Position numbers and translations under genes: made by a program
The notes under the pieces: generated by a model
The model's input: only the letters and a program-made list of their open reading frames with translations
The model's database searches: none
What the model was told of the DNA's origin: nothing
Shown here: positions 2,719 through 32,000 of the stretch, one piece after another
How positions within the stretch are numbered: the stretch's first letter is position 1
Layout of the letters: each line of letters begins with the position of its first letter
Origin: an uncultured Chloroflexia bacterium
GTDB lineage: Bacteria; Chloroflexota; Ktedonobacteria; Ktedonobacterales; JADMIN01
Length of the DNA stretch: 32,000 bases
Assembly: GCA_963718915.1 (NCBI GenBank)
Contig: CAVRAI010000013.1
Coordinates: forward strand, 240,001 to 272,000
Reading direction: 5' to 3'

Positions 2719-3836
2719 CCGCGCGCCTCCCTGTGACCAAGCGCCTCATGGTAGACCGCGACTGTCTTCCGTGCCACCCGCTCCTGCGTAAACCGCTCCA
2801 GCACCCAGGCGCGGCCAGCGCGGGAGAATCGCTCGCGCATCGCTGCATCACGCGCCAGTCGCAGTAGTCCAACTCGCAAGGCCTCGACGTCCCCTTCTGG
2901 CACGATCATACCCGCAGCGCCAATCACATGGGGTATCTCCCCAGAATCCGAGCCAATGACGGGAACGCCACAGGCCATCCCCTCGACCAACACCCGCCCA
3001 AACTGCTCTTTCCAGTTCGGCTGAGTCAACGATGGCGCCGCCAGCACATCCATATCGGCCAGCGCATGCGGAACCTCGGCGGTAGCAATCGCTGGCACAA
3101 AATCGACTCGCTCCGCAACGCCACGTTCACTGGCGATGCGGCGGAGCGCGCGCTCATCCGGCCCGCTGCCAACCAATCGCAGCCGACAGTGATCTGGCAT
3201 CCCTTGCAGGGCCTCGATGAGCAGGCCAACACCTTTGTACAAGACCAGTCGCCCCAGATATCCGATGACGAATGCATCGGAGGAGGAAGTGCGCGGTACG
3301 GGACAGTAAATATCAGGGTCAATACCGTGTACGGAAAAGACAGCAGTCGGGCCAATGTATCCCTTGCGGCGCAACACATTAGCGGCATCGGCGTTGCCAG
3401 CGATGATCGCGGCAGCATGGCGATAGTTAAAACGTTCTATCCAGGCATACGGCGCGGGATAGGTTCGATAAAGATTCTGCCACGAGACGAAGACTGTACG
3501 AGCGCCGACCGCATCCGCTATCCTTTGGGCCTGCGCTCCAGCAGGGTTATACGGCTCCTCGTCGATATGCAGCACGTCAGGGCGCTGCTGACGAACTACC
3601 GCACCAAGTCCAGGGTAGAAGTAGAAGTGGTATTGCCCATTGAAGGCGACCGGCACTTTGCGCACCTGATAGCCTGCGGTAAAACGTTGAACAAATGGCA
3701 GGCGGCGGCCATCATCGGAGCGCCAGAATGGTGGGGTGACCAGCGTCAGCTCGATATCTGGCTGGCGGGCAATCCATTCGAGCTGGCGCTGCGCAGTCTC
3801 AGCCACAAAGGTCTTGGAGACGATGACAACCCGCAT
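2715..3836 (-). CDS. Glycosyltransferase family 4
   Basis: The 373-aa ORF has the Glycos_transf_1 C-terminal pattern EQFGRVLVEGMACGVPVIGSDSGEIP (E-x7-E). It starts 6 nt after the upstream GT stop. Confidence 0.8.
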   Translation of the reverse strand: MRVVIVSKTFVAETAQRQLEWIARQPDIELTLVTPPFWRSDDGRRLPFVQRFTAGYQVRKVPVAFNGQYHFYFYPGLGAVVRQQRPDVLHIDEEPYNPAGAQAQRIADAVGARTVFVSWQNLYRTYPAPYAWIERFNYRHAAAIIAGNADAANVLRRKGYIGPTAVFSVHGIDPDIYCPVPRTSSSDAFVIGYLGRLVLYKGVGLLIEALQGMPDHCRLRLVGSGPDERALRRIASERGVAERVDFVPAIATAEVPHALADMDVLAAPSLTQPNWKEQFGRVLVEGMACGVPVIGSDSGEIPHVIGAAGMIVPEGDVEALRVGLLRLARDAAMRERFSRAGRAWVLERFTQERVARKTVAVYHEALGHREARG

Positions 3837-8032: not shown

Positions 8033-10873
8033 GTGGATAGCACAGGACGTACTCCCGCACCCGGCGACAATCCAGGCGAGTCCCCCGACGAAAATACCCT
8101 CGACTCGAACAATCTTTCAACCGATTCGCCGATTCCGTCAGAGCTTCCGGCAATTGAAGACGAGCCGACACAACTTCTTGAACCGGATATACCACTCGTA
8201 CCGACACACGCGTACCCAGCCGATGACTACCCAGAACCGATCCAGGTGCCTGTGGTCTCCAGTATGGCAAGCGCGCCGGATGAACCGAGCGAGTCTGATG
8301 TGCCGGACGAAATCGAGAACATCGAAGACATTCCCACACAGGTCAACACGTTCGATGAGCCGACAACCGACAGCTATGGGGATTATCCCGACGAAAGCGT
8401 CTATCGCGACCGGGACGATGTTTTCGATGATGATGAAGACTACACGGAACCTGACGACGACGCTCGCACTCAGGGCGGAATCGCTGTATGGGATACGTAT
8501 GACCAGCGTGCCCCTAGCTATTACATTGCCCCTTCAGTCTCTCCACGTCGGCTGCAACTGTCTCGCCGTCGTCGTCGATATATCTTTTACATTCGCCACT
8601 CGGTTCGTGCCCGTCAGGCGGCACGCAGCAGCGCGCTGACACGGCTTGCCTGGGCCTCGGCTATCGTGACCGGAGCGATCATCCTTACTCTGCTGACTGG
8701 CTCCATCGGGATCGCGGCATCATACTATCAATCCCAGCAGGCTGTAATCACATCACTCAATCGCACCGTTTCGTCACATGACAGCGTGCGCATCTACGAT
8801 AGCACTGGCGTTCTGCTCTACCAGTTCTCTGACTATGGCGCGCAACACAGTATCTCATTGGCGAACGTGCCAATTTCGCTCGTCAATGCCACCGTCGCCA
8901 TCGAAGATCGCTCGTTCTGGGTCAACCAGGGCATTGATTTCACCTCAATTGTCCGGGCAGCTGTCGCCGACATTCAGACAAAAAGCATCAACCAGGGCGG
9001 CAGCACCATTACCCAGCAGCTCATCAAGCAGAACGTCCTTAACAGCAATGAAACATTTGATCGCAAACTGCGTGAGGCGATCCTCTCTGTGGGCATGACA
9101 ACATCGGGCGCGTATAGCAAGAGCCAGATTCTGGAGATGTATCTTAACTCGATACCGTATGGTCAGGAGGCGTACGGCATCGATGCGGCGGCGTCGGCCT
9201 ATTTTGGCTATCAGGATGACCCGGTCACAGGTGAGTCGGCAGCGCAGCAACTCGATCTGGCGCAGGCATCGATGCTGGCAGGTATCCCGCAAAATCCAAA
9301 TACCAATAATCCGCTGCTGCACCCGCAGCATGCGCACGACCGCCAGAAAGACGTCCTCAACGCAATGATCACCGCAGGGTACATCACCCCAGCGGAGATG
9401 ACAGCGGCAGTGCAAGAATCGTTGTCGCCGAACTTCTTCCACCCACAGGCATCGACCAAGAATCTCGCGCCGCACTTTGTCAACTTCGTCGAAGATCAGC
9501 TCTCGACCATGTTGCAGACCGGTCAACTTCACCTGACACGTTCTGGTCTCAACGTCTACACCACCCTCGACATTGGCCTGCAGAACAAAGTGCAGCAGGC
9601 AATGAAAGATCATCTGTATGGCAATGATCGGGACGACTATCGCGGCTACATCCGTAACGACCATTTGTCGAATCTCGCCGGTATGGTTGTTCAGCATAGC
9701 ACCGGCGCGATTCGTGTATTTCTGGGCAGCGTCGATTACAACAGCACAACCATCGATGGCCAGTTCAATGTCTTGACACAAGGTTTAGGCCGAGGCCCTG
9801 GATCATCGTTCAAGCCTATTGTCTATGCCACTGCGTTCTCCAAGGGCTGGTTCCCCGGAATGTCTATCGCGGATTTACCCACGATCTTCTGGGATAACGG
9901 CCAGGAAAAGCCCTACAATCCGCTGGACTTCAACTATAACGAATTCTGGGGCAACATCACCTTGCGGACCGCGCTACAAAACTCGCTCAATATCCCCGCG
10001 GTCAAGGTGATGCAGTTCGCGGGCGTGGATGATGTGCGAACCATGGCAATGCGCATGGGCATTACCGATTGGAATGGTACCTGGGGGCTTTCGTCGGTGC
10101 TCGGTACCCTTGACGTACACCCTTACGAGATGGTGCAAGCGTATACAGTCTTTGCCAATTATGGCCAGTACATTCCGCTATACGCGATTGACAAGATCAC
10201 CGATAGCTCAGGCGATACGCTGTTCCAGTACACACAACCGCGTCCGATCCAGGTGATGAGTCCGCAGGTGGCGTTCCTGGTAACCAGCGTGCTCAGCGAT
10301 AACTTCACACGCGCCAAAGACTTCGGCGCGTGCAGTCCGCTGTTCGTCGATGCGACGCTCAAAGGTGGCGACTGCCAGGCGTGGCTACGTCAACGACCGC
10401 CCGGAGACCCCACCGGACAGGCTACATGGCCATCACCCAACGCCTGGCCAGCGGCTGCCAAGACAGGTACCGGCGAAAACTTCAAAGACGACTGGACGCT
10501 TGGCTACACCATGGACTACACAGCGGGTTTCTGGGGAGGCAACGACGACCACTCGCCGATGTACCACATCGATGGTATTACCGGCGCCGCGCCTATCTGG
10601 CGCAAAGCACTGCTCTATGCCGAACAGGGAAAACCCAAGACGCCGTTCCCAGTCCCTGAAGGGGTTCACAAGATCACTTACACATCGAATGGGGTCTCCT
10701 CGACCGATTGGATCATCAATGGCGTGACGCCGCCGAAGGATATTGGTAACGCTGGGCCTGCTCAGCTTCCCTGCATTGTATTCACCAATGATGACACTGA
10801 TCCGTGGAGGTACAGCTCTGGCAACTGCCAGGGCACGCTGATACCCGGTGGGGGCAGCCCCTATAGACCGTAG
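8033..10873 (+). CDS. Class A penicillin-binding protein (PBP1A family transglycosylase/transpeptidase) with long acidic N-terminal extension
   Basis: The gene uses a GTG start with GGAGGAG 7 nt upstream. A TM helix lies near aa 205-230. GT51 motifs are EDRSFWVNQGID and GGSTITQQL. Transpeptidase motifs are SSFKP (SxxK), SLN (SxN) and KTGT. Confidence 0.85.
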   Translation: MDSTGRTPAPGDNPGESPDENTLDSNNLSTDSPIPSELPAIEDEPTQLLEPDIPLVPTHAYPADDYPEPIQVPVVSSMASAPDEPSESDVPDEIENIEDIPTQVNTFDEPTTDSYGDYPDESVYRDRDDVFDDDEDYTEPDDDARTQGGIAVWDTYDQRAPSYYIAPSVSPRRLQLSRRRRRYIFYIRHSVRARQAARSSALTRLAWASAIVTGAIILTLLTGSIGIAASYYQSQQAVITSLNRTVSSHDSVRIYDSTGVLLYQFSDYGAQHSISLANVPISLVNATVAIEDRSFWVNQGIDFTSIVRAAVADIQTKSINQGGSTITQQLIKQNVLNSNETFDRKLREAILSVGMTTSGAYSKSQILEMYLNSIPYGQEAYGIDAAASAYFGYQDDPVTGESAAQQLDLAQASMLAGIPQNPNTNNPLLHPQHAHDRQKDVLNAMITAGYITPAEMTAAVQESLSPNFFHPQASTKNLAPHFVNFVEDQLSTMLQTGQLHLTRSGLNVYTTLDIGLQNKVQQAMKDHLYGNDRDDYRGYIRNDHLSNLAGMVVQHSTGAIRVFLGSVDYNSTTIDGQFNVLTQGLGRGPGSSFKPIVYATAFSKGWFPGMSIADLPTIFWDNGQEKPYNPLDFNYNEFWGNITLRTALQNSLNIPAVKVMQFAGVDDVRTMAMRMGITDWNGTWGLSSVLGTLDVHPYEMVQAYTVFANYGQYIPLYAIDKITDSSGDTLFQYTQPRPIQVMSPQVAFLVTSVLSDNFTRAKDFGACSPLFVDATLKGGDCQAWLRQRPPGDPTGQATWPSPNAWPAAAKTGTGENFKDDWTLGYTMDYTAGFWGGNDDHSPMYHIDGITGAAPIWRKALLYAEQGKPKTPFPVPEGVHKITYTSNGVSSTDWIINGVTPPKDIGNAGPAQLPCIVFTNDDTDPWRYSSGNCQGTLIPGGGSPYRP

Positions 10874-17604: not shown

Positions 17605-18060
17605 TTAGCGGAGCAACTGACGCGCGCGGCTGAGGCCGCGCAGTACGACACTCGGCGCAGACCGCAGGCGGCGGACAATGACCGGCGTGATCGAACCACG
17701 AATCTCATCATACAGGCGCGGAGCCTGGTCGAGCGAATCCAGATCTATCTCACCGCTCCACCGCTCGCGGCTGTAGAGGTCGGTCAGTTCATGGATATTC
17801 GCCTGTTGGTCCGGGAGAACCACCGCCAATTGTTCGGCGTACTCCTTCGGCGTCTGAGCGCGTGAGGGAGGCGCGCCAGCCCAGGTTCCCAGCCGCGCGA
17901 CCCGTGCCAGCGCGCCAGCCGCCGGAGCCAGGCCACGGAACTTGATCCGCCACCAGAAGAGGAATCCAATGATCGCCAGCAAGATGAGCAGGATGACTAC
18001 GCTCATGCCCAGGCCAACACGCACCACTGCGGAATTCTGTGGAGCGTTCTGGTCCACCAT
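17605..18060 (-). pseudogene. Frame-shifted C-terminal segment of the TgpA-like gene (TM helix plus DUF4129-like tail)
   Basis: In another frame (open from 18324), the TM helix VVILLILLAIIGFLFWW is followed by SRAQTPKEYAEQL...LTDLYSRERWSG. That pattern normally forms the C-terminus of TgpA-type proteins. Confidence 0.55.
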
Positions 18061-20002
18061 TGCCAAAGTTAGGATCGGTGACGCCGGTGCCCCGGTTGCC
18101 CCCTGGAGGGGTAGCCACTGTCCCTGTGCCAGTGGCGCCGGGCGTGGTACCTGGGGCAGCATCTTGCGCGCGGAAGAACTTGGTGAACGAGGCGGTCGGC
18201 TCAAAGTTGACCCACCCGTACTTCCCGAAGTAGATCTGCGTCCACATGTGCGCCTGCGTGCCGCGCACAACAAAGTCCTCATGGTCCTGGTCATACGTCC
18301 CATTCGTGAAGCCAAGGGCGACACGGGTCGGCATTCCCAGCGAGCGCCCCATCATCGCCATCGCCGATGCGAAGAAGGTGCAGAAGCCTTTCTTGGTCTG
18401 CAAGAACCAGGCGATAGCATCCTGATCGGCGGGCGGCTCGGGGTTGGTCGTACTGTAGGTAAAGCCAGCGCGCAGGTAATTCTCCAGATGCTCCGCAGCA
18501 TCGTACATGGAGGTCGTACCTTTGGTGGCCTGTAACGCAATCTGTTTAACATACGGGTCTATATGATCCCCTGACGGCAGATAGAGGAGCAGCGCATTAG
18601 AGGGGTACATGGCAGGGTCAGGATTGCTCAGATTGGGATATGGCACCTGAGAGAGCTGGTCGACCGTAGCTGTCGAGACATAGCCCTCCGCAACGTACTG
18701 ATCACCGGCCTGTAACGGGTTGTCTGCCTGCCAGATAGTCCCTTGAGCAGCGTCACCACGGGTCGTGTACGTGGTGTTTACGTTGAAACGGGCTGCCTCA
18801 GCGCCAGGGGCAAACAGATAACTCTCACCGCCCTGTGGCACATTATCGAAGGTGATCGCATACGTGTCTATTTTTGTATCAGCCGAAGAGGGGGGCATTA
18901 ACTGATTCGCGCGAGCGCTTCGTTGCTGCCCAGTCGTTGAGGACCAACTGGCGACTCCATCATAGGAATCATAGGTTTCTGTGATCAGATATTGCGAACC
19001 GTCATCGGCAGGATGAGGTAGCGTGTAATGCAATATCTTCGTATTGGGCAGATTCACCGTTCCCCGCAGACGAAGCGAGGAGTCAAAGAAATTGATGCCT
19101 CCAGGTCCGGAGCCAGTTCCCACCACACCCGCGAATATCTGCGCGAACTTGGTTTGCAGCGTGGTAAGCGGATTCCGCGGTGAGGCAGCCCACTCCTGGA
19201 GTTGTGCGTTCGCCTGACCAACCGGCAAGAGATATGCTACCAACAACACCGCCACGGCAAAGATAGCGCCCGCCTGCATAAAGTCCCAACCGAGATCGGG
19301 CGAGAAGCGCAGGCCGCGAGCCTTCCACTGGCGAATATTCTCGGCCAGGGTAAAGCGCACGAGCAAGAGCAGTGAGACCAGCAGGAAGAGCAGCAGAAAA
19401 ATGAGCTTGTCGGGAGTGGCCCAGTTGAGGTTGATGAGCAGCACCACGCCGTTCGCCAGCACAGCCAGCCACGGACGACGCGTGCGAAGCACCAGCCACA
19501 CGGTGATATAGGCGAGCAAAAACGTCAGAATCCCCAGGAAGAGAAGAAAGACCGTATTATCACTACTCTGCCCCCCGTTCACAATCGCGCGCTGGAACCA
19601 ATTACTGGTATGCTGGAGGAGCAAGAGACGATTGCCGTTGAGTACAGCATCGGCAGTTTGGAGAAATGCGAACACAATGCCCAGACAGACGGCGACAGAA
19701 TGCACCAGCACACCAGGCAAACGTCCCTGCTGTACGGCAAGATACCCTAACAGCAATCCGAGGCTGGTTGTCGCGGTAAGGATTTGCATGCCTGGCGCCC
19801 AGGGCGGCGTGACACTCTCGATACTGAAGACTGTGATGTAGACCGAGAGCGCCAGCAGAATGAGCGTAAACCAGCCGTCCTCCGGGAGAAGTCGCAGCCA
19901 GGGCGCTCGTGGCGCGAGCGGGCGGCGTACATTTGGCGCGTTCTGTACGCTCGGCATACTCTCTACGTTCTGCGACGAAGGTGTTTGCGTAGTAGTTTCC
20001 AT
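17789..20002 (-). CDS. Transglutaminase-like membrane protein (TgpA/DUF3488 type); 3' tail probably out of frame
   Basis: The N-terminus has multiple TM helices. The transglutaminase core is KKGFCTFFASAMAMMGRSLGMPTRVALGF (Cys), AHMWTQIYF (His) and GWVNFEPT. Below about 18050 the ORF tail becomes Gly/Arg/Trp-rich and looks non-native. Confidence 0.7.
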   Translation of the reverse strand: METTTQTPSSQNVESMPSVQNAPNVRRPLAPRAPWLRLLPEDGWFTLILLALSVYITVFSIESVTPPWAPGMQILTATTSLGLLLGYLAVQQGRLPGVLVHSVAVCLGIVFAFLQTADAVLNGNRLLLLQHTSNWFQRAIVNGGQSSDNTVFLLFLGILTFLLAYITVWLVLRTRRPWLAVLANGVVLLINLNWATPDKLIFLLLFLLVSLLLLVRFTLAENIRQWKARGLRFSPDLGWDFMQAGAIFAVAVLLVAYLLPVGQANAQLQEWAASPRNPLTTLQTKFAQIFAGVVGTGSGPGGINFFDSSLRLRGTVNLPNTKILHYTLPHPADDGSQYLITETYDSYDGVASWSSTTGQQRSARANQLMPPSSADTKIDTYAITFDNVPQGGESYLFAPGAEAARFNVNTTYTTRGDAAQGTIWQADNPLQAGDQYVAEGYVSTATVDQLSQVPYPNLSNPDPAMYPSNALLLYLPSGDHIDPYVKQIALQATKGTTSMYDAAEHLENYLRAGFTYSTTNPEPPADQDAIAWFLQTKKGFCTFFASAMAMMGRSLGMPTRVALGFTNGTYDQDHEDFVVRGTQAHMWTQIYFGKYGWVNFEPTASFTKFFRAQDAAPGTTPGATGTGTVATPPGGNRGTGVTDPNFGNGGPERSTEFRSGACWPGHERSHPAHLAGDHWIPLLVADQVPWPGSGGWRAGTGRAAGNLGWRASLTRSDAEGVRRTIGGGSPGPTGEYP

Positions 20003-20046
20003 AGCAATCGCTCCGTTTCGCGGAGAATGGTGAGAACGAGCAGATT

Positions 20047-21243
20047 TTAGCGCGGACCCTGCTCCAGGACATGAACCAGCGGATCGCCGCGCTGCACCGG
20101 AATTACCGGCACCCCCGCCGCAACCAGCATGTCGCGCGTGCGAGCATTGCCTCCCAGTCGCTCATCGAACGACTGTGGATCCATCAGGATGACCAGTGGT
20201 CGCACACCGCGCCGCTGCAAATGATGTAATGCCTGCGGCCAGTCCAGTTCGGTCGAAGGCGTGATAACGATCAGTACCGTGTTGCGCGCCAGGCGCGTCT
20301 CCTGCACAGCAAGCGCCTCGGCCAACGAGAAACGCCGCGTGGCATGAGCCACCGCAAGCAACTCGAGCACACGATCAAGCTGGCGCTCGCCGCGATCCAG
20401 AGACAATCCAGACTCAGCCGTGCCGTTGACCTGCAAGCCGACGGATAGCTCCTGGTGGCGCAACAGATATGCCGAAATGCTGGCAGCCATCGTCACGCCA
20501 TACTCTTCGGTCGAGCTATCACCCTCGCCTGCCTGTGCTTCGCGGTCGAGATCAAGCATGACAGCCACATCAATGGTGGGATCGAGGTCAAACTCTTTCA
20601 CCATAAACTGATTGAGCCTGGCGGTACTCGGCCAGTGAATCCGCGTGAGCGCGTCGCCGGGCACATAATTGCGCACCGTCACGACGTTCGTGGTCGTCTG
20701 TTGCGACCGCTGCGACCCACGTCCGCGTCCCGGCATCAGCCCGGGCACCAATTCAAAGTGTGACAATGGCAGCGTCGGCGGCAAGACAAGCAACTGGTGC
20801 TCGGGAGCCAGCACCAATTCGCGCCGGAATAATCCGAGCGGATCGCCCGTGGTAGCAGTGACTGGGCCGAGCGTGAAGCGCCCGCGTCGACGACACACTG
20901 TCTTCGCCCGCCACGCGATACGTTGATGTGGGCCAACGCTCGACACATAGCCCGCGTGATGGCCGGGGAGGGTCGAACCGTCGGAGACCTGTATCCACAA
21001 CTTCGGAATCACCGAGTGGTTTTCAAGCGTGAGGCTCTCCTCCACGCGCTCGCCCACCTGTGCCCGCCCGCCAAGCGCCGACCGCGCGAACGTAATACCG
21101 CGCACACTCAACGCCAGCCAGACGACCGAAAGCACCAGTGCGCTCAACAGCGCATAGGTCAGCACCCAGAACGGTTGCCACCCTATTCCGACCCCGAGGA
21201 CGAACGTCACCGCGATCAAGAGAATCAGTTGCCAGGGGCGCAT
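20047..21243 (-). CDS. DUF58 domain protein (MoxR-associated, vWA-like)
   Basis: Two N-terminal TM helices are present. VRNYVPGDALTRIHWPSTARLNQFMVKEFD is the DUF58 signature. The gene lies 29 nt downstream of the MoxR gene. Confidence 0.8.
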   Translation of the reverse strand: MRPWQLILLIAVTFVLGVGIGWQPFWVLTYALLSALVLSVVWLALSVRGITFARSALGGRAQVGERVEESLTLENHSVIPKLWIQVSDGSTLPGHHAGYVSSVGPHQRIAWRAKTVCRRRGRFTLGPVTATTGDPLGLFRRELVLAPEHQLLVLPPTLPLSHFELVPGLMPGRGRGSQRSQQTTTNVVTVRNYVPGDALTRIHWPSTARLNQFMVKEFDLDPTIDVAVMLDLDREAQAGEGDSSTEEYGVTMAASISAYLLRHQELSVGLQVNGTAESGLSLDRGERQLDRVLELLAVAHATRRFSLAEALAVQETRLARNTVLIVITPSTELDWPQALHHLQRRGVRPLVILMDPQSFDERLGGNARTRDMLVAAGVPVIPVQRGDPLVHVLEQGPR

Positions 21244-21272
21244 ATGCCCATGCCTTCCTTATCCACCGATTC

Positions 21273-22265
21273 TCATCGGCGGCCATTAAGTGATCCAGGG
21301 CCACCAGGCACGGGCACCAGCCCAAGCACTTCATCGAGCACGGCGGTTGGGGTCACACCGCGCACACGCGCCGCCGGGGCAATAATGAGGCGATGGCTCA
21401 GCGCGGGCTTCACCAGCGCCTTGACATCGTCAGGCGTCACATAATCGTGTCCCTTTAACGCGGCGTACGCCTGTGACCCACGGAAGAGCGCCAACGATCC
21501 GCGCGGGCTGGAGCCGAGATACACTTGCTGATGCTGCCGGGTGGCGGTCACCAGCGAAACGATGTATTCGCGAATCTCCTGATCGACGCGTACCTCGCGT
21601 ATCTGTCGCTGCATAGCGGTCAGCTCATCTGCCGTCAGGATCTGGCCGAGCGAGTCAATCGGATGAACGCGCTGCTGGCGGTCGAGGATGGTCACCTCAT
21701 CGGCAGGGGCTGGGTATCCCAGGCTGATGTTGAGCATAAAGCGGTCAAGTTGCGCCTCTGGCAGTGGAAAGGTCCCCTCATATTCGATAGGATTCTGGGT
21801 CGCCATCACGATAAATGGATCAGGCAACAGATGCGTGTCGCCATCCACGGTAATCTGTCCCTCTTCCATCGCCTCCAGGAGCGCCGACTGCGTCTTAGGC
21901 GTCGCGCGGTTGATCTCGTCGGCCAGCACAAACTGACTCATGATTGGCCCGGCGCGGAACTCGAATTCGCCGCTGCGCTGGTTAAACATCGAAACACCCG
22001 TCACGTCGCTCGGAAGGAGATCGGGCGTAAACTGAATGCGCTTGAAGGTACAGCCGATGGAGCGAGCGATGGCTTTCGTCAGCACGGTTTTGCCCACCCC
22101 TGGCACATCTTCGATCAGCACATGTCCGCGGCAGATCACGGCAATGAGCGTCAGGTGCACGGCGTCGTGCTTACCAACGATGACCTTCTCGACATTCGCG
22201 ATGACGCGCTGTGCGGCGTCGCTGATGTCCGCCACAGACAAAGTGGGACGATCTTCCAGTTTCAC
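21273..22265 (-). CDS. MoxR-like AAA+ ATPase
   Basis: Walker A is DVPGVGKT and Walker B is [24 protein letters not shown]. The longest ORF starts at ATG 22304, which has no SD. The in-frame GTG at 22265 forms a GTGA overlap with the upstream small-ORF stop and gives the usual ~30 aa before VIVGK. Confidence 0.85.
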
Positions 22266-22543
22266 GCATGTTCGCGGCCCCTCCGACTGGCGAACACCTG
22301 ACATGGTTCACCAGGCAGCTCATGCAGGCCGCACTCCTTTCTGAACACTCGCTCTACGCACTGGCGGGTGATTTCGCCAGGCACTGCCACACACGCGATT
22401 GTAATTGCGTCATCCATGAAAAGGCCCGTATCGACCTTTATCCTCAATTTTCCGTCACATTGGTCGTTGGCGTCAAATCTCTCGGTATACCGATTCAGTC
22501 GCCGCCAACCGATGAGCGACATTTGTGTCATCTTCTGCTTCAT
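22262..22543 (-). CDS. Candidate small protein (93 aa, Cys-containing), possibly first gene of the MoxR operon
   Basis: The ORF's TGA overlaps an in-frame GTG of the MoxR gene (GTGA at 22262-22265). An extended -10-like TGgTATGAT lies on the minus strand at 22641-22633. I recognise no family and the RBS is weak. Confidence 0.3.
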
Positions 22544-23965: not shown

Positions 23966-25078
23966 TCAGGATGCGTTTTCCCATGCCTGAGCCATGGTGT
24001 CGCGGTAGCGGTCGAGCCAGAGCCAGAAGGTATCGGCCCAGTGTAGCCGTGAGAGCGCGTCCTCCTCATCGGCGCTGGTCTCGAACTCATCCGGGAATAC
24101 CAGGTCTTCGACGATACCGTTGACGAAGATAATCGGGAAGACGAGGGCCAGCGCATCGGCGAGCAGCGGCGCCTCGCCCTCAGCCGGGGGCGCCTCGCGA
24201 CCATACGCGCCGAGGTAACGGTGAACCCGCAAAATGTCCAACCCATCATCCACCAATGGTGGAGTCGGGCTGATAGCGTCATCCCAGCGCACACCTGTGA
24301 AATAGAGCAGGCTATAGGCCAGTTCGAGGAGGCGAGTATCCCAGCGGGCGGCGTCGAAATCGTAGATCGCGCTGACCTCAGACGAGCCAAACCGGAGATT
24401 GTGCGCCTGAAAGTCGCCGTGGATGTGTAGCTGCGGCGGCGCTGGCTCGACGGCGAGCGCGCTGGCGGCAGCCTCGCGTCGGCCTTCGCATGCCTCGGCG
24501 ATGCGGGTCAGAGCGCTCTTGACCGCAACAGAAGCATCTTCGCGTTGCGCCGCCTGCTGTATCAGGGCAATGTATGAGCTTGCCAGCCCATCAGCCGAGC
24601 GATCCTCAGGCCAGCGATATGGCTGCCATTGGAAGCCTGCCGACGCCTGATGCAGTCTGGCGAGCATACGGGCGGCTGCCTCAAGCTCCGCCTCGCCCGC
24701 GGCGTCTTCGGTGGCGAACTGCCGCCCATCCAGCCATTCCTGCACCTCATAGACGCCGTTATCTGTGATCGCGTGCGTGACGCCATCCGGACGGGCAAGC
24801 AGTCCTGGCACAGGCAAGCCAGCATCCCGCAGGTGCGCCATGAAGGCGTGGCGGAAGCGCAGATCAGCTTCGGAGAGTTCGGGCGACTGCCCGCGCACCA
24901 GATAGCGCTGCCCGCGCACCTCCACCACCGGACGGAGGATGGCGCCAGCCATGCCTGGCACTGCGCCGACGACCCGCACATCTTTGGCCGAGAGTCCCCA
25001 TTCCGCGAGAACCATCAGCGCCTCATCGCGCGCTTCGTTCAGTTCCTCATCCTGTATCACTACGCGCCTCCCGTGCAA
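23966..25078 (-). CDS. Phosphotransferase, APH/choline-kinase-like family
   Basis: The Brenner motif LHIHGDFQAHNLRF (HGDxxxxN) and the metal-binding IYDFDAARW (DFD) are present in a 370-aa ORF. Confidence 0.75.
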   Translation of the reverse strand: MHGRRVVIQDEELNEARDEALMVLAEWGLSAKDVRVVGAVPGMAGAILRPVVEVRGQRYLVRGQSPELSEADLRFRHAFMAHLRDAGLPVPGLLARPDGVTHAITDNGVYEVQEWLDGRQFATEDAAGEAELEAAARMLARLHQASAGFQWQPYRWPEDRSADGLASSYIALIQQAAQREDASVAVKSALTRIAEACEGRREAAASALAVEPAPPQLHIHGDFQAHNLRFGSSEVSAIYDFDAARWDTRLLELAYSLLYFTGVRWDDAISPTPPLVDDGLDILRVHRYLGAYGREAPPAEGEAPLLADALALVFPIIFVNGIVEDLVFPDEFETSADEEDALSRLHWADTFWLWLDRYRDTMAQAWENAS

Positions 25079-25141
25079 CGCACATATGCTCTCGCCTGTT
25101 CATCAATACGATAGCGCATCGAGATGGGCCGCGGAGTGATG

Positions 25142-25150
25142 TGCTACAAT
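25142..25150 (+). promoter_or_regulatory. Extended -10 promoter element upstream of add
   Basis: TGCTACAAT (TGnTAnnAT type) lies 62 nt upstream of the GTG start. No good -35 is present. Confidence 0.4.
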
Positions 25151-25211
25151 CTTGCAAATATTCAGCGCCATTTGGCACGAACGGAAACACGAACGGAATG
25201 AGGAGGAGCGC

Positions 25212-26225
25212 GTGACCTCGCCGAGCATTCTCAACCAGCGACCGGAGATGGCAGAGTTACATGTGCATCTTGGCGGCGCGGTTGACCCGGCCATCATGTG
25301 GAGCATCGCCCATCAGCAGGGCATTCGTCTGCCAAGCAAAGACTACTGGCAATTTGTCGAACTCATCACCGTCAGCTATCCCGACAAGGTCAACAACCTC
25401 GCCGAATACGACCAGATCTTCCGCTGGACCGAGTTGATTCAATCCAGCCCGCTGGCCATCGAGCGCTCCGTCTACGAGGTTATCGGCGGGGCGTATCGCA
25501 AATGCAACATCACGACGCTGGAGCTACGGTTCAACCCGATGAAGCGTAATCGCGAGGGCGAGCAAGACCTGGATCACATTATTTCCGCCGCCATCCGCGG
25601 GCAGGATCGCGCGCTGCTGGAATACCCCAAGATGCGCTCCGGGCTGATTCTGATGATGGATCGCACGTTTCCGCTGGAGCTGAACGCCATCATCGTCGAG
25701 AAAGCGCTGCGCTACCGGGGACGAGGCATCATCGGCATTGACATCGCAGGGCCGCCCAACTCCGATTTCTCCTATCGCGCCCACGCCGACCTGGTGGAAC
25801 AAGCGCGTGACGCTGGACTCGGCGTCACGATCCACACCGGCGAGGAGGGGCGAGTTGAGGATATGTGGGAGGTCGTGGAGTACCTGCGGCCAGATCGTAT
25901 CGGCCACGGCATCCTCTGTGTCTACGATGAGAAGCTGATGCGGCGCGTGGCTGAAACGGGCATCGTGCTCGAGGTCTGCCCGACCTCAAATCTGCGCACT
26001 CGTGCTGTGCGCGATATCGCCGAGATACGCCACATTCTCGATACCATGCGGGCGAACGGGGTGCCGTTCACGATCAACACCGATGGCCCCGATATGCTGA
26101 TGACCACAATTCTCAAGGAGTATCAGTTCTTGCTCCAGCAGGGCATCTTCACCGACGCCGATGTGGTGAGCTGCAATCAGACCGCTATCGACGCCAGCTT
26201 TCTCAATCGGACCTGCCCGGTCTAA
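25212..26225 (+). CDS. add: Adenosine deaminase
   Basis: A GTG start has AGGAGG 5 nt upstream. The TTG at 25152 overlaps the -10 element and is rejected. ADA motifs are ELHVHLGG (HxH), HTGEEG, RIGHGI, EVCPTSN and INTDGP. Confidence 0.85.
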   Translation: MTSPSILNQRPEMAELHVHLGGAVDPAIMWSIAHQQGIRLPSKDYWQFVELITVSYPDKVNNLAEYDQIFRWTELIQSSPLAIERSVYEVIGGAYRKCNITTLELRFNPMKRNREGEQDLDHIISAAIRGQDRALLEYPKMRSGLILMMDRTFPLELNAIIVEKALRYRGRGIIGIDIAGPPNSDFSYRAHADLVEQARDAGLGVTIHTGEEGRVEDMWEVVEYLRPDRIGHGILCVYDEKLMRRVAETGIVLEVCPTSNLRTRAVRDIAEIRHILDTMRANGVPFTINTDGPDMLMTTILKEYQFLLQQGIFTDADVVSCNQTAIDASFLNRTCPV

Positions 26226-26310
26226 ATCTGACTTCGCCTTCAGCCATTCACTTTGTGAAAGAACGAGCAAGTCGGTGAGATCCGTCTTTGCCCGGCGGAT
26301 AGCAATCTTA

Positions 26311-26319
26311 TGCTAGAAT
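26311..26319 (+). promoter_or_regulatory. Extended -10 promoter element upstream of the TIR-TPR gene
   Basis: TGCTAGAAT lies 80 nt upstream of ATG 26399. It has the same architecture as the add element. Confidence 0.4.
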
Positions 26320-26398
26320 GAACCAGCAAGCGGCATTCTCGGCGAGCCAAACATCCAGTCCACAGGACCAGCGCTTTCGCGCGCGGGAGGGACAGCAC

Positions 26399-27490
26399 AT
26401 GGCGGAAACGACACAACTGCGGGTCTTTGTCAGCCACAGCCATGAGGATGACGCTTTCTGTCGCACGGTCGTCCAGGCGCTGCGCGAGGCGGGCGCGGAC
26501 GTCTGGTACGACGAGCACAACCTGGGCTCGGGCCAACTGATGTCGGTAATCCAGCGCGAGCTGAGCCGCCCGGTCTTCATCGTCATCCTCTCGAAGTCTG
26601 CCTTCGCCTCCCGCTGGGTCAAGCGCGAGACCACCTGGGCGTATGAGATGTACGACCGCGACCCCTCGCGCCTCATCCTGCCTGTCACCGCCGGGCAGAT
26701 CGAGCGGGACGACTTCAGCCCGCAGAACGAGTGGCTCTTCCTGCACGACTTCAAGCGCGTCGAGGCTCCCGGCTTCGCACCCTTTGCGCCGGATGAGGCG
26801 GCCAACCGCCTGCTGCGCGCCCTCGGCCTGACCCCAGCGGGCGAGGCGCCCGCGCCCATCGCCCCACAGCCCACGGAGGATGTGGATGACCTGCTGACCC
26901 GTGGCAAGGCGCTAATCGCGCAAGATAAATACGCCGAGGCGCTGCCGCTCTTCGAACGCGCCAGCCAGCTCGCCCCCAGCTCGTTCGACGCCTGGGCTAA
27001 CCTGGGCTACGTTCTCGGTGAATTGGGACGCTATCAGGAGGCGCTGGCCGCCGATGAGCGCGCCCTCGGCCTCGACGATCAGCAGGCGTGGGTCTGGAAC
27101 TGCAAGGGGAAAGCGCTGGATGGGCTGGGACGCTATCAAGAGGAGTTGGTCGCCCTTGACCGGGCGCTGGCCCTCGACTCCAACTACGCGATAGCCTGGA
27201 ACAACAAGGGCACCGCGTTCAACGGGCTGAAGCGCTCCGACGAGGCGCTGGCCGCCTACGACCGGGCGCTGGCCCTCGACCCCGACTACGCACTGGCCTG
27301 GAACAACAAGGGCAACGCGCTCTGGGGGATGAAGCGCTTTGCCGATGCCGTCGTCGCCTATGACCGGGCGCTGGCCCTCGACCCAAACCTCGCCCAAGCC
27401 TGGAACAACAAGGCGATCAGCCTGCGCGCGCTGGGGCGGACCGCCGAGGCGGAGGCGGCGGAGCAGCGGGCGAAGGCGCTGGGCGGGTAG
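26399..27490 (+). CDS. TIR domain - TPR repeat protein (363 aa)
   Basis: ATG 26399 has GGGAGGG 7 nt upstream. The N-terminus carries RVFVSHSHEDD...VWYDEH...FIVILSKSAFASRWVKRE, a bacterial TIR_2-like pattern. A Pro/Ala linker follows, then six 34-aa TPRs (AWNNKGNAL...ALAAYDRALALDP). Confidence 0.85.
   Translation: MAETTQLRVFVSHSHEDDAFCRTVVQALREAGADVWYDEHNLGSGQLMSVIQRELSRPVFIVILSKSAFASRWVKRETTWAYEMYDRDPSRLILPVTAGQIERDDFSPQNEWLFLHDFKRVEAPGFAPFAPDEAANRLLRALGLTPAGEAPAPIAPQPTEDVDDLLTRGKALIAQDKYAEALPLFERASQLAPSSFDAWANLGYVLGELGRYQEALAADERALGLDDQQAWVWNCKGKALDGLGRYQEELVALDRALALDSNYAIAWNNKGTAFNGLKRSDEALAAYDRALALDPDYALAWNNKGNALWGMKRFADAVVAYDRALALDPNLAQAWNNKAISLRALGRTAEAEAAEQRAKALGG
27089..27487 (+). repeat. 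102-bp periodic coding repeats (TPR units 3-6)
   Basis: GACCGGGCGCTGGCCCTCGAC recurs at 27158, 27260 and 27362, and GCCTGGAACAACAAGG recurs with the same 102-bp period. The repeats are in frame within the TIR-TPR CDS. Confidence 0.9.
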
Positions 27491-27538
27491 GGGTAGCGGC
27501 TGGCGACTGAAGTCGCGCCTGAAGGGCCTGCGGCCACC

Positions 27539-27558
27539 AAGTCCGCCTGCGCGGACTT
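27539..27558 (+). terminator. Stem-loop downstream of the TIR-TPR gene
   Basis: AAGTCCGC, loop ctgc, then GCGGACTT form a perfect 8-bp stem 49 nt after the stop. There is no U-tract, so terminator function is uncertain. Confidence 0.3.
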
Positions 27559-27688
27559 CCCAGCACCAGACGCTGCCTGACGAGATGCCCGGTCGAGAGC
27601 AGGTCTGCGCAACCCGCGACGGTGGGTTTTGTGGCAGAGTGCAGCGAGGCCGTTCAGGCGCGGTTTTAACCGCCCGCATGTTCATCGT

Positions 27689-27802: not shown

Positions 27803-28276
27803 TCATCGGGCAGACGCCGCCAACAACCCACGGTCACACCGAAGGTGGCCATCTTCGTGGATGTTGGCCACCTTCGGTGTGACCGTCTCCTCATCAACCC
27901 ACTCAAGGGTCTCATCGTCTGGGAGCGTCCAGCTCCATCCCTCTTCGTAGCCGACCTTGATGGAGGGAATCCGCAACTTGCGCTTGCTCCGCCTGAGGCT
28001 GCGCTCGCTAATACCCCAGACCTTGGCGCGTTCTTGAATCAGCCGCTCCGGTTGCGGACCACCCGCGAGGATATCGGTGAGAAACGTGCCAGCGCGCGCC
28101 ACCGCCCGCCGCAACTGCGACCCCCCGACCGTCCACGGCACGCCATCGGTTTCCCAGCGCACCACCTCCCCGCTGGGATGGAGAGACGGCGGCGCGATGG
28201 TCTGGCAGCCCGTCGAGCGCAATTCGATGAGCATGGCGCTGTGGCGGGTGGGGACCCTCTCCCGGCCTTCGGCCAC
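27803..28276 (-). pseudogene. Truncated bifunctional primase-polymerase (Prim-Pol) like gene remnant
   Basis: IELRSTGCQTIAPPSLHPSGEVVRWE matches only the distal part of the Prim-Pol domain (G-x-D/E-x-R...GGY-x-x-x-PPS-x-HP-x-G-x-x-Y/W). AKVWGISERSLRRSKRKLRIPSIKVGYEEGWSWTLP follows and is HTH-like. The N-terminal catalytic part is absent, and the ORF start lies inside a GC-rich repeat. Confidence 0.5.
27831..27885. repeat. Perfect 21-bp inverted repeat with 13-nt spacer
   Basis: CGGTCACACCGAAGGTGGCCA (27831-27851) and TGGCCACCTTCGGTGTGACCG (27865-27885) are exact reverse complements. Confidence 0.95.
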
Positions 28277-28364
28277 CCTCCCCTGCGAGGGGAGGGACTA
28301 GGCGAACAAAAGCGGCCACCTGGCTGCCCTCCCTCTTTCGGGGAAGGGGTTGGGGGAGAGGGTC
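28253..28364. repeat. GC-rich nested inverted-repeat element (two inverted ~45-bp copies)
   Basis: The outer arms are GACCCTCTCCC (28253-28263) and GGGAGAGGGTC (28354-28364). An inner perfect hairpin is CCCTCCCCT-gcg-AGGGGAGGG (28276-28296). An imperfect counterpart lies at 28327-28348. Confidence 0.7.
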
Positions 28365-28369
28365 TCTCC

Positions 28370-28450
28370 GAGCTGCCGCTGAAGCAGTACGGTCATGCGG
28401 TGGACGCCACCCGCTACACGCTGCATACCGCGCTGGGTCGAGCTGTACCT
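28370..28450 (+). pseudogene. Possible tyrosine-recombinase C-terminal fragment
   Basis: ELPLKQYGHAVDATRYTLHTALGR resembles the integrase box II region (LGH-x5/6-T-x-x-Y-x-H, with the catalytic Tyr). It reads toward the tRNA 3' end about 60 nt away. Nothing integrase-like lies upstream. Confidence 0.3.
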
Positions 28451-28512: not shown

Positions 28513-28587
28513 TGGTGAGACCGGTGGGATTCGAACCCACGACACGAGGCTTAAAAGGCCCCTGCTCTGCCCCTGAGCTACGGTCCC
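28513..28587 (-). tRNA. tRNA-Lys (anticodon UUU)
   Basis: The 75-nt cloverleaf was folded by hand. The acceptor stem is GGGACCG/CGGTCTC with one G-U pair. The D arm is GCTC-AGGGGCA-GAGC. The anticodon arm is GGGGC-CTTTTAA-GCCTC and the variable loop is GTGTC. The T arm is GTGGG-TTCGAAT-CCCAC. The discriminator is A and CCA is encoded. Confidence 0.93.
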
Positions 28588-29887: not shown

Positions 29888-31087
29888 CTAGGGCACATCG
29901 ATGGCGATGTCATAGGTGAAGTAGCGGCGCACCTGGCGATAGACGTCGGCATGCGGCGGGGCGGGCGGCTCCATGCCCGTGTAATGCGGCCACGCGGTGA
30001 TGCGCCACTGCTCCAGCGCGATCCGCCGGGTCGCCTGCCACTGTTCCGCCGCCTCCACAATCTGTCGCTCCGCCGCGCGCCCACCGAACGAGACCAGCAT
30101 CGGCAGGCGTGCGGCAAAGATGCACAGCGAGGGTCCATCCGCGCCCTCAGCATAGACACCGTAACGAATCCGCGGGCGCACAAACGAGCGGCGATGAGCA
30201 TCGGGGCCAAGGATCACCAACCGCATGCCTCGCAGCCCCATCCAATGCACCAGGCTGGGATCAGTCTTGAAGTGCAACGTGCGCCGTGGATGGGCAGCCA
30301 GCAGCGCCCTGACTGGCTCGGCGAGAAGCTCGGCATCCTCGCTGCCCAGGCTCAATCCATTGCCCAGCGGAATCCATTGCATCGCGCTCTTCTCGGCGCC
30401 ACGCAGCCGCATGAAGCCACACGGCGCCAATGACTCGCTGTATAACGCCTCGGCATGCTTGCGGAACGCGACACTGGCATCCGACATCCCCAGCCAGAGC
30501 GGCAGCGTCAAGAGTCCACCATCGGCGAGCTGCTCGAACCACGCGGGGGTCACATCCGTCGCGCCCACCGTCAGTTCGATCCGGTCGTAGGGCGCGTCTT
30601 CGGCCCAGCCTGCCGCCCCATCCGCCGTCACCACTTGTACGCGGCCATATCCGGCGACAGCCAGATGCGCGCGAGCCTCAGCAGCGATCTCCTCGCCAAT
30701 GTCCACCGTGGTGACATGGCCCGCTGGCCCGGTGAGTTCCGCCAGCAACGCCGCGTTATAGCCCGTGCCCGCGCCAATCTCCAGCACGCGCATACCCGGC
30801 TCGATGCCAAGCTGCTGGAGCATGATGGCGACAATCGCTGGCTGCGAGGCCGAGCTAATCGGCTGGCCGTCCTCCTCGTGGGTGAGGATGGCGTTGTCAC
30901 TGTAGGCCGCTGCGAGCGGCGCGTCTGGCAGAAAGAGGTGGCGCGGAACCGTATTCAGCGCGCGCTCAACCGCCTCGTCGCGCAGCACGCCATCGCGCCG
31001 CAGCTTCTCGACCAGCGCCTGGCGTAGCTCCTCTGGCGTCACATTATTCGCGTTATTCGCGTTATTCGATTCGGTCGGTGCGGACAT
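29888..31087 (-). CDS. PIMT-like (protein-L-isoaspartate O-methyltransferase fold) methyltransferase with ~200-aa C-terminal extension
   Basis: ATG 31087 has GGAG 7 nt upstream. VPRHLFLP, MRVLEIGAGTGYNAALLAEL (SAM motif I) and APYDRIELTVGA fall in the first ~200 aa. About 200 aa of unassigned domain follow. Confidence 0.75.
   Translation of the reverse strand: MSAPTESNNANNANNVTPEELRQALVEKLRRDGVLRDEAVERALNTVPRHLFLPDAPLAAAYSDNAILTHEEDGQPISSASQPAIVAIMLQQLGIEPGMRVLEIGAGTGYNAALLAELTGPAGHVTTVDIGEEIAAEARAHLAVAGYGRVQVVTADGAAGWAEDAPYDRIELTVGATDVTPAWFEQLADGGLLTLPLWLGMSDASVAFRKHAEALYSESLAPCGFMRLRGAEKSAMQWIPLGNGLSLGSEDAELLAEPVRALLAAHPRRTLHFKTDPSLVHWMGLRGMRLVILGPDAHRRSFVRPRIRYGVYAEGADGPSLCIFAARLPMLVSFGGRAAERQIVEAAEQWQATRRIALEQWRITAWPHYTGMEPPAPPHADVYRQVRRYFTYDIAIDVP
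31044..31070. repeat. 9-bp tandem repeat (about 3 copies) at the purL stop / methyltransferase N-terminus
   Basis: TTATTCGCG occurs twice and is followed by TTATTCGAT. The repeat encodes NNANNANN in the methyltransferase frame. Confidence 0.85.
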
Positions 31088-32000
31088 GCGCCTGCTCCGC
31101 TTCAGGTGTGTCGCCCACCTGCCGGAATCCCTGCCGCCAGGCGGCATACATCTCGTCAATGGTGGCATCGAGTAGCGGCGGGAACGCAAGCCGGTCGCCT
31201 CCGACAACGCCCAGGCGCGTCAACAGCATGCCATGTGACTCCGCCAGCTCGCTGAGCGCGTCCCAGTTCTCCGGCGCGGCGGAAAGCACAATGCGCGAAG
31301 GCGCCTCGCCAAAGAGCAGCGCCGTCGCCGCCAGCGGATCGCCCGTCAGCTGCTCGGGCAGTTGCAGCTCGCCGCGCATCCCCAGGCCCGACCAGATACA
31401 GCACTCCGCCAGCGCCACTCCCAGGCCGCCATCCGAGCAATCATGGGCGCTCTGGAGCAGACCCGCGGCGCACGCGGCCAACACCACCTGCTGCACCGCG
31501 CGCTCCACTTCCAGATCGAGCTGTGGCGGACGGCCTGCCCGCGTCGCATGAAGCTCTGCCAGGTAGCTGCTGCCACCGAGGGTATCGGGCGTCACCGCCC
31601 AAGGCCCCAGCACGCCCACGATGGCTCCGTCGGCCTGGAACGCGCTCGGCGTCGGCTCGCGTCCCTCCAGCAAACCCACCATGCCCACGACCGGCGTTGG
31701 GTAGATCGCCTTGCCGAAGCTCTCGTTGTAGAGGCTGACATTGCCGGAGATCACCGGGGTTTCGAGGATACGGGCGGCGGCGGCCATGCCATCAATCGCC
31801 CGCGACAACTGATAATAGACCGTTAGTTTTTCGGGGTTGCCGAAGTTGAGGCAATTGGTCAGCGCAAGCGGCGTCGCTCCTGTGCAGACGATGTTGCGGG
31901 CGGCCTCGGCGACGGCCAGCGCCCCACCGTTGAATGGGTCGAGCCAGGTCAGACGTCCGTTGCCATCCGTCGTAAGCGCCAGATATTTGCCCGTCTCGCG
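31062..32000 (-). CDS. purL: Phosphoribosylformylglycinamidine synthase subunit PurL (5' end outside window)
   Basis: The ORF is open to the window end (313 codons in frame). LTNCLNFGNPEK...AIDGMAAAARILETPVISGNVSLYNE...IYPTPVVGMVG is typical of the PurL C-terminal half. Confidence 0.85.
   Translation of the reverse strand, partial: RETGKYLALTTDGNGRLTWLDPFNGGALAVAEAARNIVCTGATPLALTNCLNFGNPEKLTVYYQLSRAIDGMAAAARILETPVISGNVSLYNESFGKAIYPTPVVGMVGLLEGREPTPSAFQADGAIVGVLGPWAVTPDTLGGSSYLAELHATRAGRPPQLDLEVERAVQQVVLAACAAGLLQSAHDCSDGGLGVALAECCIWSGLGMRGELQLPEQLTGDPLAATALLFGEAPSRIVLSAAPENWDALSELAESHGMLLTRLGVVGGDRLAFPPLLDATIDEMYAAWRQGFRQVGDTPEAEQAHVRTDRIE

Follow-up and report, generated by a model that had tools for sequence, protein, structure and literature searches.

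The DNA analysed here (the window) is a 32,000-nucleotide stretch of contig CAVRAI010000013.1 from an uncultured Chloroflexia bacterium of the order Ktedonobacterales. It carries an intact gene for a 363-residue protein that joins an N-terminal TIR domain, a Pro/Ala-rich linker and six tetratricopeptide repeat (TPR) units (Table 1). This domain order had been read from the open reading frame (ORF) in an initial annotation of the window, and was recovered by both Pfam profiles and an AlphaFold2 (AF2) model. The three parts account for all 363 residues and leave no space for a nucleoside triphosphatase (NTPase) module. Furthermore, no match to NTPase/STAND, SIR2, SAVED or transmembrane families was found in Pfam, NCBIfam or PADLOC, in agreement with the initial statement that a STAND NTPase is missing. 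As judged by alignment with characterized enzymes, the catalytic signature of NAD-cleaving bacterial TIR proteins is complete in this TIR domain.

Table 1. Features of the TIR-TPR gene and its surroundings, in nucleotide positions of the window.
Feature	Position	Strand	Remarks
Synteny breakpoint	26225-26226	.	Closest relative homologous up to the Add stop codon only
Extended -10 promoter-like motif TGCTAGAAT	26311-26319	+	Read from sequence; predicted leader of ~73 nt to the ATG
Shine-Dalgarno-like GGGAGGG	26385-26391	+	7 nt 5′ of the ATG at 26399; read from sequence
TIR-TPR gene	26399-27490	+	Intact ORF, 363 residues
TIR domain, residues 8-142	26420-26824	+	Strands 8-12, 34-37, 59-64 and 92-97; alpha-C helix 72-87
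WxxxE motif, W73-V-K-R-E77	26615-26629	+	E77 codon 26627-26629
Pro/Ala-rich linker, residues 143-161	26825-26881	+	Conserved with the TIR domain as a single module of ~200 positions
Six TPR units, residues 162-363	26882-27487	+	Units start at 162, 196, 230, 264, 298 and 332
Palindromic dispersed repeat, ~180 nt	27498-27677	.	Inverted repeat I2, directly 3′ of the TIR-TPR stop codon
Prim-Pol/AAA_25 remnant	28098-28324	-	About residues 201-241 of a 770-residue protein left, ~40 codons
Large terminase C-terminal remnant (...DATRYTLHTALG)	28339-28437	+	77% identical in DNA to the 3′ end of the terminase region of L024
tRNA-Lys (UUU)	28513-28587	-	ARAGORN; Rfam RF00005, 66 bits

Two TIR profiles had been named in the initial annotation as a check on the domain assignment. 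Residues 9 through 116 match PF13676 (TIR_2) with an E value of 3.5e-17 and a score of 63.4 bits, compared with a gathering cut-off of 28 bits, and the PF01582 score falls under its threshold. A profile search of the PDB identifies PdTIR (4e-17), BtTir (3.6e-14) and AbTir (4e-12), and also TcpB/BtpA, as the closest relatives with solved structures. The W73-V-K-R-E77 motif of the window protein aligns with ‘WPQKE’ of PdTIR, ‘WPARE’ of TcpB and ‘WTNYE’ of AbTir, the last of which lies within ‘DWTNYE’ and includes W204 and E208. Residue G44 aligns with G174 in the BB-loop of AbTir, and all three functional residues of AbTir (W204, E208 and G174) are thus kept in the window protein. The AbTir paper describes the E208A mutant as inactive, the W204A mutant as reduced in activity, with this Trp governing the cyclisation of ADP-ribose (ADPR), and the BB-loop mutant G174A as having nil or very low activity. 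The role of the WxxxE motif was confirmed in a JBC 2023 paper.

Conservation among 68 homologues is concordant with these alignments. Residue E77, which the initial annotation had placed at the position of the catalytic Glu and which corresponds to AbTir E208, is invariant in 68/68 sequences, and W73 is kept in 66 of them. F10, S12, W36, D38, R57 and R120 are likewise invariant. The predicted location of E77 within the NAD pocket, which is lined by beta-A, the BB loop, alpha-B and alpha-C, rests on this alignment and on the fold of the domain.

A Foldseek search with the full-length model was swamped by TPR proteins and uninformative for the TIR portion, and therefore a TIR-only AF2 model was used (predicted local distance difference test score, pLDDT, of 92). 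Its best structural neighbours are all enzymatic TIR domains, including SPARTA TIR-APAZ, the TIR domains of plant NLR proteins, AbTir and SARM1. Template modelling (TM) scores of 0.7-0.77 to the SPARTA TIR domain indicate the flavodoxin-like TIR fold. The model is also closer to ligand-bound AbTir (7UXU; TM 0.68/0.75) than to the apo form (7UWG; 0.50/0.54). By motif and predicted fold, the window protein belongs to the TIR superfamily and sorts with the enzymatic TIR proteins, and it is probably a NAD-cleaving enzyme.

The remainder of the protein is equally regular. In most of the 150 best-ranked representatives, the match to the TIR-module profile extends through approximately position 200. 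Pfam TPR_1 matches six stretches (E=4e-36), and Tandem Repeats Finder reports a period of 102 nucleotides repeated 3.1 times in the DNA of the TPR region. A full-length AF2 model computed from the 68-sequence alignment (pLDDT 94.8; predicted TM score 0.89) contains a five-stranded TIR domain, an ordered linker and 12 helices at residues 162-360, which constitute the six TPR units. Structural matches of this last part are CTPR and the TPR region of OGT.

The scaffold residues of the 34-residue unit (W4, G8, L11, A20 and A27) are nearly fixed. The most variable positions across the family are 2, 12, 9, 33, 13 and 5, which we take from general knowledge of TPR proteins to form the lining of the concave ligand-binding groove. 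Variability in the family would on this basis be concentrated at groove positions. Position 6 is usually Asn, presumably the counterpart of the Asn ladder in OGT.

A search with the full-length protein returned more than 2,000 matches. The best 120 homologues are all TIR_2 plus TPR proteins of 283-591 residues with 43-77% identity, and every named source among them is labelled Ktedonobacterales. An exhaustive search with a TIR-plus-linker profile yielded 391 clusters (50% identity level) at E<=1e-30. Among the 150 best matches to the TIR module, the TIR domain occupies the N-terminus in almost every case, and lengths range from 125 to 760 residues apart from one protein of 1,773 residues. TIR domains of this subtype therefore essentially never reside inside STAND-sized proteins. 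The exceptional protein, P0338, has seven separate matches to the TIR module, which is an unusual multi-TIR architecture.

Protein lengths across the family increase in steps of ~34 residues, which corresponds to 5-10 TPR units, and several genomes have more than one TIR-TPR locus. These proteins form a defined family, in which an N-terminal TIR-plus-linker module of ~200 positions is followed by 5-10 canonical TPR units, and the window protein is a member. Thousands of database proteins are already labelled as TIR- or TPR-containing. The novelty of the window protein is therefore more modest than was proposed, as databases already label its architecture, which Ktedonobacterales have in abundance, yet no protein of this kind is characterized.

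The beginning of the gene was placed by comparison. An in-frame ATG upstream, at 26318, would yield a product of 390 residues (27 more). We favour the start at 26399 because the N-termini of the homologues coincide with its M1, because the DNA of the closest relatives is homologous only from 26386 or 26409 onward, and because the GGGAGGG Shine-Dalgarno-like sequence precedes it. Purine-rich stretches resembling GGAGG lie 5′ of the start in most family loci. An exact-sequence look-up of the 363- and 390-residue products gave no record.

A generic scan of the window for sigma-70 -35/-10 promoters and terminators detected nothing, and a family-wide motif count was used in its place. The pattern TGnTAnnnT, as TGCTAGAAT or close variants, is present upstream in 18 of 25 family loci, although only 0.09 occurrences are expected per 229 nucleotides. 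Nearly all of these 18 loci carry it 34-90 nucleotides 5′ of the start. The extended -10 element and leader that had been predicted for the window gene are supported as a feature of the family because the motif recurs across its loci.

The gene lies next to conserved core genes for an M24 peptidase, APH and adenosine deaminase (Add). Window positions 24562-26224 are 85.5% identical to positions 1-1680 of the related locus L054, with no homology past 26224. The Add protein of the closest relative is 94% identical to that of the window, and unrelated met genes are located 3′ of its Add gene. Another locus, L055, retains the order M24 peptidase, APH and Add with a different region downstream. The TIR-TPR gene is accessory at this site, because homology to the closest relative stops exactly at the Add stop codon.

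A functional link between the TIR-TPR and Add genes was rejected, since Add is a conserved core gene that never adjoins other family members. The Add, APH, M24 and HtrA genes of the window are shared by none of the 48 related loci compared. The PADLOC CARF_ADA match of Add is limited to the deaminase domain.

The closest relatives of the TIR-TPR gene itself point to a different kind of association. Loci L024 and L049 each carry a homologue with 81% DNA identity to the window gene over ~1 kb, and both of these genes are frameshifted, possibly due to assembly errors. Both loci, which occupy other, different chromosomal sites, have a phage-type Prim-Pol/AAA_25 gene in convergent orientation to the TIR-TPR gene. 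A large terminase gene is present in L024 as well, and its ORF matches phrog_2 (terminase large subunit) at 3e-30. Between the Prim-Pol/AAA_25 and terminase genes of this locus lie the TIR-TPR gene and a transposase-like ORF, which from its translation is probably of the IS110 type. The orientation of the TIR-TPR gene of L024 is opposite to that of the flanking backbone genes, as expected of inserted cargo.

In L051 and L052, which carry more distant Prim-Pol relatives, the Prim-Pol/AAA_25 and terminase genes are directly adjacent to each other with no TIR-TPR gene between them. There the two genes, encoding 782 and 597 residues respectively, make up a ~4.5-kb block amid housekeeping genes (L051 1090-5152; L052 8001-12063). 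This two-gene block has no integrase, capsid or portal gene, and is an unusually minimal element.

Fragments of the same two genes remain in the window. The Prim-Pol remnant has 80% identity by tblastn over 41 residues to the Prim-Pol/AAA_25 protein of L049, DNA identities of 73.6% to L049 and 85% over 85 nucleotides to L024, and a weak match to the Pfam Prim-Pol family. The terminase fragment is inverted relative to L024, and therefore the history of the site includes rearrangement. Only the TIR-TPR gene is intact; the Prim-Pol and terminase genes are decayed. Because its closest relatives sit with intact element genes that are represented by fragments here, we consider the TIR-TPR gene to be part of the decayed element, not its neighbour. 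The accessory, mobile-element-associated location described in the initial annotation is thus upheld, but the gene is more than a neighbour at the edge of the island, since the closest relatives place it in the same element lineage.

These comparisons suggest that the window copy was brought in by a small phage-like element, which later decayed next to the tRNA-Lys gene. No integrase ORF and no att direct repeats were found in the window. The ends of the element are undefined because the window holds neither a second partial tRNA-Lys copy nor a direct repeat of either half of this gene.

Several repeats accompany the gene and the element. The palindromic repeat that follows the TIR-TPR stop codon has a predicted RNA fold of -99.8 kcal/mol (z = -3.4). 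Copies exist in at least nine other Ktedonobacterales loci, and in L010 and L020 the copy is likewise located directly 3′ of the TIR-TPR stop codon. We regard this repeat as a possible hairpin, terminator or element resembling a miniature inverted-repeat transposable element. A second, short dispersed repeat with the core ccctcccctgcgaggggaggg is found at 28247-28330 of the window, and in L001 (8993-9055), L024 (6476-6547 and 9266-9372) and L049 (11274-11380). It lies 3′ of the TIR-TPR stop codon in L001 and L024, and is apparently inserted in frame within the Prim-Pol ORF of L049 (residues 154-200). The region of the decayed element also contains a near-perfect 27-nucleotide inverted repeat at 27830-27886, with 93% complementarity and a 3-nucleotide loop.

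Family neighbourhoods were examined for partner genes. All-versus-all clustering of ORFs from 49 loci revealed no neighbour that recurs across genomes, and annotated neighbourhoods consist of monocistronic genes amid ordinary metabolic genes. No SIR2, SLOG, Macro or membrane-effector gene occurs within ~10 kb of the window gene, and no ThsA-like gene (SIR2, Macro or SLOG) adjoins the TIR-TPR gene in ~50 sampled loci. Pentapeptide-repeat proteins are encoded near the TIR-TPR gene in L001, L012 and L021, and were rejected as partners because three loci are too few.

Individual loci have peculiarities of their own. L012 contains a tRNA-Lys gene (3280-3354) that is 96% identical to that of the window and a 45-nucleotide partial copy of its 5′ half (9904-9948), and the 6.5 kb between them hold two genes for pentapeptide-repeat membrane proteins and the TIR-TPR gene. 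This bracketed stretch may represent an old integration event. In L050, a PIN-domain gene with an adjacent small ORF (8155-8863), an arrangement resembling a toxin-antitoxin pair, is directly beside the TIR-TPR gene. At the edge of the same locus (1-55), and extending beyond it, is the gene for a 338-residue fusion of TIR_2 and FGE-sulfatase domains, 9 kb from the TIR-TPR gene; the fusion is another TIR-plus-sensor protein without an NTPase.

Other features of the window are distant from these subjects. A MoxR (AAA_3), DUF58 and TgpA-like transglutaminase operon occupies 17789-22304 on the minus strand, with a gene for a zinc-ribbon protein downstream, and was treated as housekeeping because it has no PADLOC match. 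The minus strand at 29888-31207 encodes a 439-residue PCMT-type methyltransferase with a long C-terminal extension, whose core matches PADLOC mad2 (5e-20) at the domain level. ARAGORN calls a 91-nucleotide tRNA-Asn at 31164-31254. This call is probably a false positive, because Rfam finds no tRNA there and protein-coding ORFs overlap the position.

The bacterial NADases AbTir, BtTir, TcpB/BtpA and PdTIR share the alpha-C WxxxE motif and the BB-loop Gly with the window TIR domain. However, they carry the TIR domain C-terminally, behind a coiled-coil dimerisation region, whereas that of the window protein is N-terminal and followed by six TPR units, and sequence identity to them is only ~20-25%. 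TIR-NLR or TIR-STAND-TPR proteins (Rst_TIR-NLR of P4 satellites, PDB 9M0N and plant TNLs) likewise have an N-terminal TIR domain and a C-terminal repeat sensor. The window TIR domain matches PDB 9M0N, an 824-residue ‘tetratricopeptide repeat protein’, at 7e-10, and PADLOC TIR-NLR at 3e-5; a literature search for a paper on PDB 9M0N found none. The TIR-NLR of P4 satellites is carried by a mobile satellite hotspot. In TIR-NLR and Avs proteins, a central STAND NTPase (NB-ARC or NACHT) is located between effector and sensor, and the window protein lacks it.

In its presumed working logic, the window protein is most analogous to DSR1 and DSR2, although the likeness would be one of mechanism only. 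DSR2 senses a phage tail tube protein, and DSR1 shares a capsid-sensing domain with Avs7. DSR1 and DSR2 are single polypeptides in which, as proposed for the window protein, a NAD-depleting effector adjoins a helical-repeat sensor and no STAND NTPase intervenes. Their effector is SIR2, whereas that of the window protein is a TIR domain, with no SIR2 match and no sequence homology to DSR. Compared with six canonical 34-residue TPR units, the DSR proteins and their sensors are also much larger and less regular.

Membership in several described defence systems was rejected. ThsB of Thoeris is a TIR sensor/enzyme like the window protein, but has no TPR array. The PF08937 score of 16.6 bits lies under the cut-off of 21.2 bits, no ThsA adjoins the gene in any sampled locus, and the PADLOC ThsB match of the window TIR domain is weak (1.7e-7). 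The initial annotation was therefore correct in setting the gene apart from Thoeris and in noting the lack of a ThsA-type partner. SPARTA, CBASS and Pycsar were dismissed because none of their partner domains is present, and PADLOC PDC-S66 because only positions 146-240 of 282, the TIR part, match (E=6.9e-15). The BcTir/BcTpr system likewise combines TIR and TPR domains for anti-phage activity, with the TPR part modulating the formation of NAD-derived product (bioRxiv 10.1101/2023.05.26.542521). There, however, two different proteins carry the TIR and TPR domains, and NADase activity resides in the N-terminal glycosidase domain of BcTpr and not in the TIR domain (bioRxiv 10.1101/2023.05.26.542521), whereas the window protein has a catalytically equipped TIR domain fused to its TPR array and no second gene.

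We give an even chance to the proposal, drawn from sequence features and from analogy with known systems, that the window protein is a cytoplasmic, single-polypeptide, NAD-cleaving TIR enzyme that is gated by a TPR ligand-binding domain and that arrived as cargo of a mobile element. The TPR groove would bind a peptide or protein ligand, most plausibly one from a phage or another invading element. Binding would relieve autoinhibition or bring TIR domains together head-to-tail, and such an assembly would form a composite active site as in AbTir, SARM1 and SPARTA. The active TIR domain would then cleave NAD+, causing its depletion and/or producing a cyclic ADPR (cADPR) isomer, with growth arrest or abortive infection as the outcome. 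The gene would have come in as cargo of a small Prim-Pol/terminase element beside the tRNA-Lys gene and been retained after that element decayed. Its role may lie in anti-phage defence or in cell death.

A number of observations weigh against this proposal. The initial annotation had suggested a survey of orthologues for association with defence islands, and the broader family is not in recognisable ones; the sampled neighbourhoods are mostly housekeeping, the exceptions being the PIN-domain pair and the TIR-FGE-sulfatase gene of L050. Some paralogues retain local synteny between species, which suggests long vertical retention. Close relatives of the TIR-TPR gene and relatives of the Prim-Pol/AAA_25 gene were not found in IMG/VR viral contigs, a search of phage genomes gave only two weak TIR matches, and no PADLOC model matches the full length of the protein, the matches being confined to its TIR part. 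Finally, a six-unit TPR array is far smaller than the sensors of Avs and DSR proteins, and what it binds may be a short peptide of the host and not a protein of a phage.

Other explanations draw on the same data. It is unlikely, though worth weighing, that the protein acts as a signal producer in trans, where a repertoire of sensors, comparable to multiple ThsB proteins, would send a cADPR-isomer signal to an effector encoded elsewhere in the genome. The counterpart of W73 in bacterial TIR proteins is a Trp with an important part in ADPR cyclisation, and weak ThsB-type matches and the many paralogues per genome with variable sensors fit a logic of many sensors and one effector. However, no ThsA-like gene (SIR2, Macro or SLOG) is near any of the ~50 loci, and the ThsB profile remains under threshold (16.6 versus 21.2). 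The variable sensors would also suit a receptor for kin discrimination or developmental cell death in filamentous Ktedonobacteria, similar to fungal HET/NLR proteins with TPR or WD sensors, which we regard as somewhat less probable still. All matches with a named source are labelled Ktedonobacterales, the family is multi-copy with a variable repeat number and a hypervariable groove, neighbourhoods are housekeeping, and the literature ties effector-plus-repeat proteins to multicellular prokaryotes and allorecognition. The window sub-clade, however, travels with phage-type replication and packaging genes, which better fits a conflict between elements, and the multicellular conflict systems described so far are built around an NTPase, which is absent from the window protein.

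The association with Prim-Pol/AAA_25 could be taken further, such that the two genes form a functional unit, for example an addiction, exclusion or copy-control module, and the TIR-TPR gene is not independent cargo. Convergent TIR-TPR and Prim-Pol/AAA_25 genes are indeed shared by all three sub-clade members, whose chromosomal contexts differ. This explanation nevertheless seems very improbable to us: the window Prim-Pol gene is down to ~40 codons while the TIR-TPR gene is intact, the Prim-Pol relatives of L051 and L052 have no TIR-TPR gene, and all other family loci have no Prim-Pol gene. We place least weight of all on a non-catalytic scaffold or a housekeeping protein resembling a co-chaperone, with the TIR domain as a mere interaction module. 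Invariance of the catalytic Glu, conservation of the Trp and the BB-loop Gly, the lack of the gene at the syntenic site of the closest relative, and the multi-copy nature of the family with its variable groove residues all speak against such a role, even though co-chaperones and assembly factors typically have short canonical TPR arrays, NCBIfam gives matches to PilW, LcrH and Ycf3 (all far below cut-off), and the neighbourhoods are housekeeping.

To our knowledge, the TIR immune proteins described so far depend for activation on one of three things, namely a second-messenger sensor domain (SAVED or CARF), an Argonaute partner or a STAND NTPase. The direct attachment of a TIR domain to a short array of canonical TPR units would represent the simplest TIR sensor-plus-effector design so far, parallel to the SIR2-based DSR1 and DSR2. 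Canonical TPR grooves are well understood and engineerable, and this would make the family a tractable model for ligand-driven TIR assembly. If the protein is only a housekeeping TPR protein, the finding is ordinary.

On a wider scale, the family may constitute a large, unstudied set of candidate immune or cell-death proteins in a multicellular bacterial lineage. We offer, tentatively and as something that we rather doubt, the broader idea that it amounts to a minimal, STAND-less repertoire of innate receptors, with dozens of paralogues per lineage, in which a short hypervariable TPR groove gates a TIR NADase and some members ride on tiny Prim-Pol/terminase elements. If true, ligand-induced TIR assembly would need no NTPase switch, and a multicellular bacterium would keep diversified receptors for the recognition of phages, mobile elements or kin.

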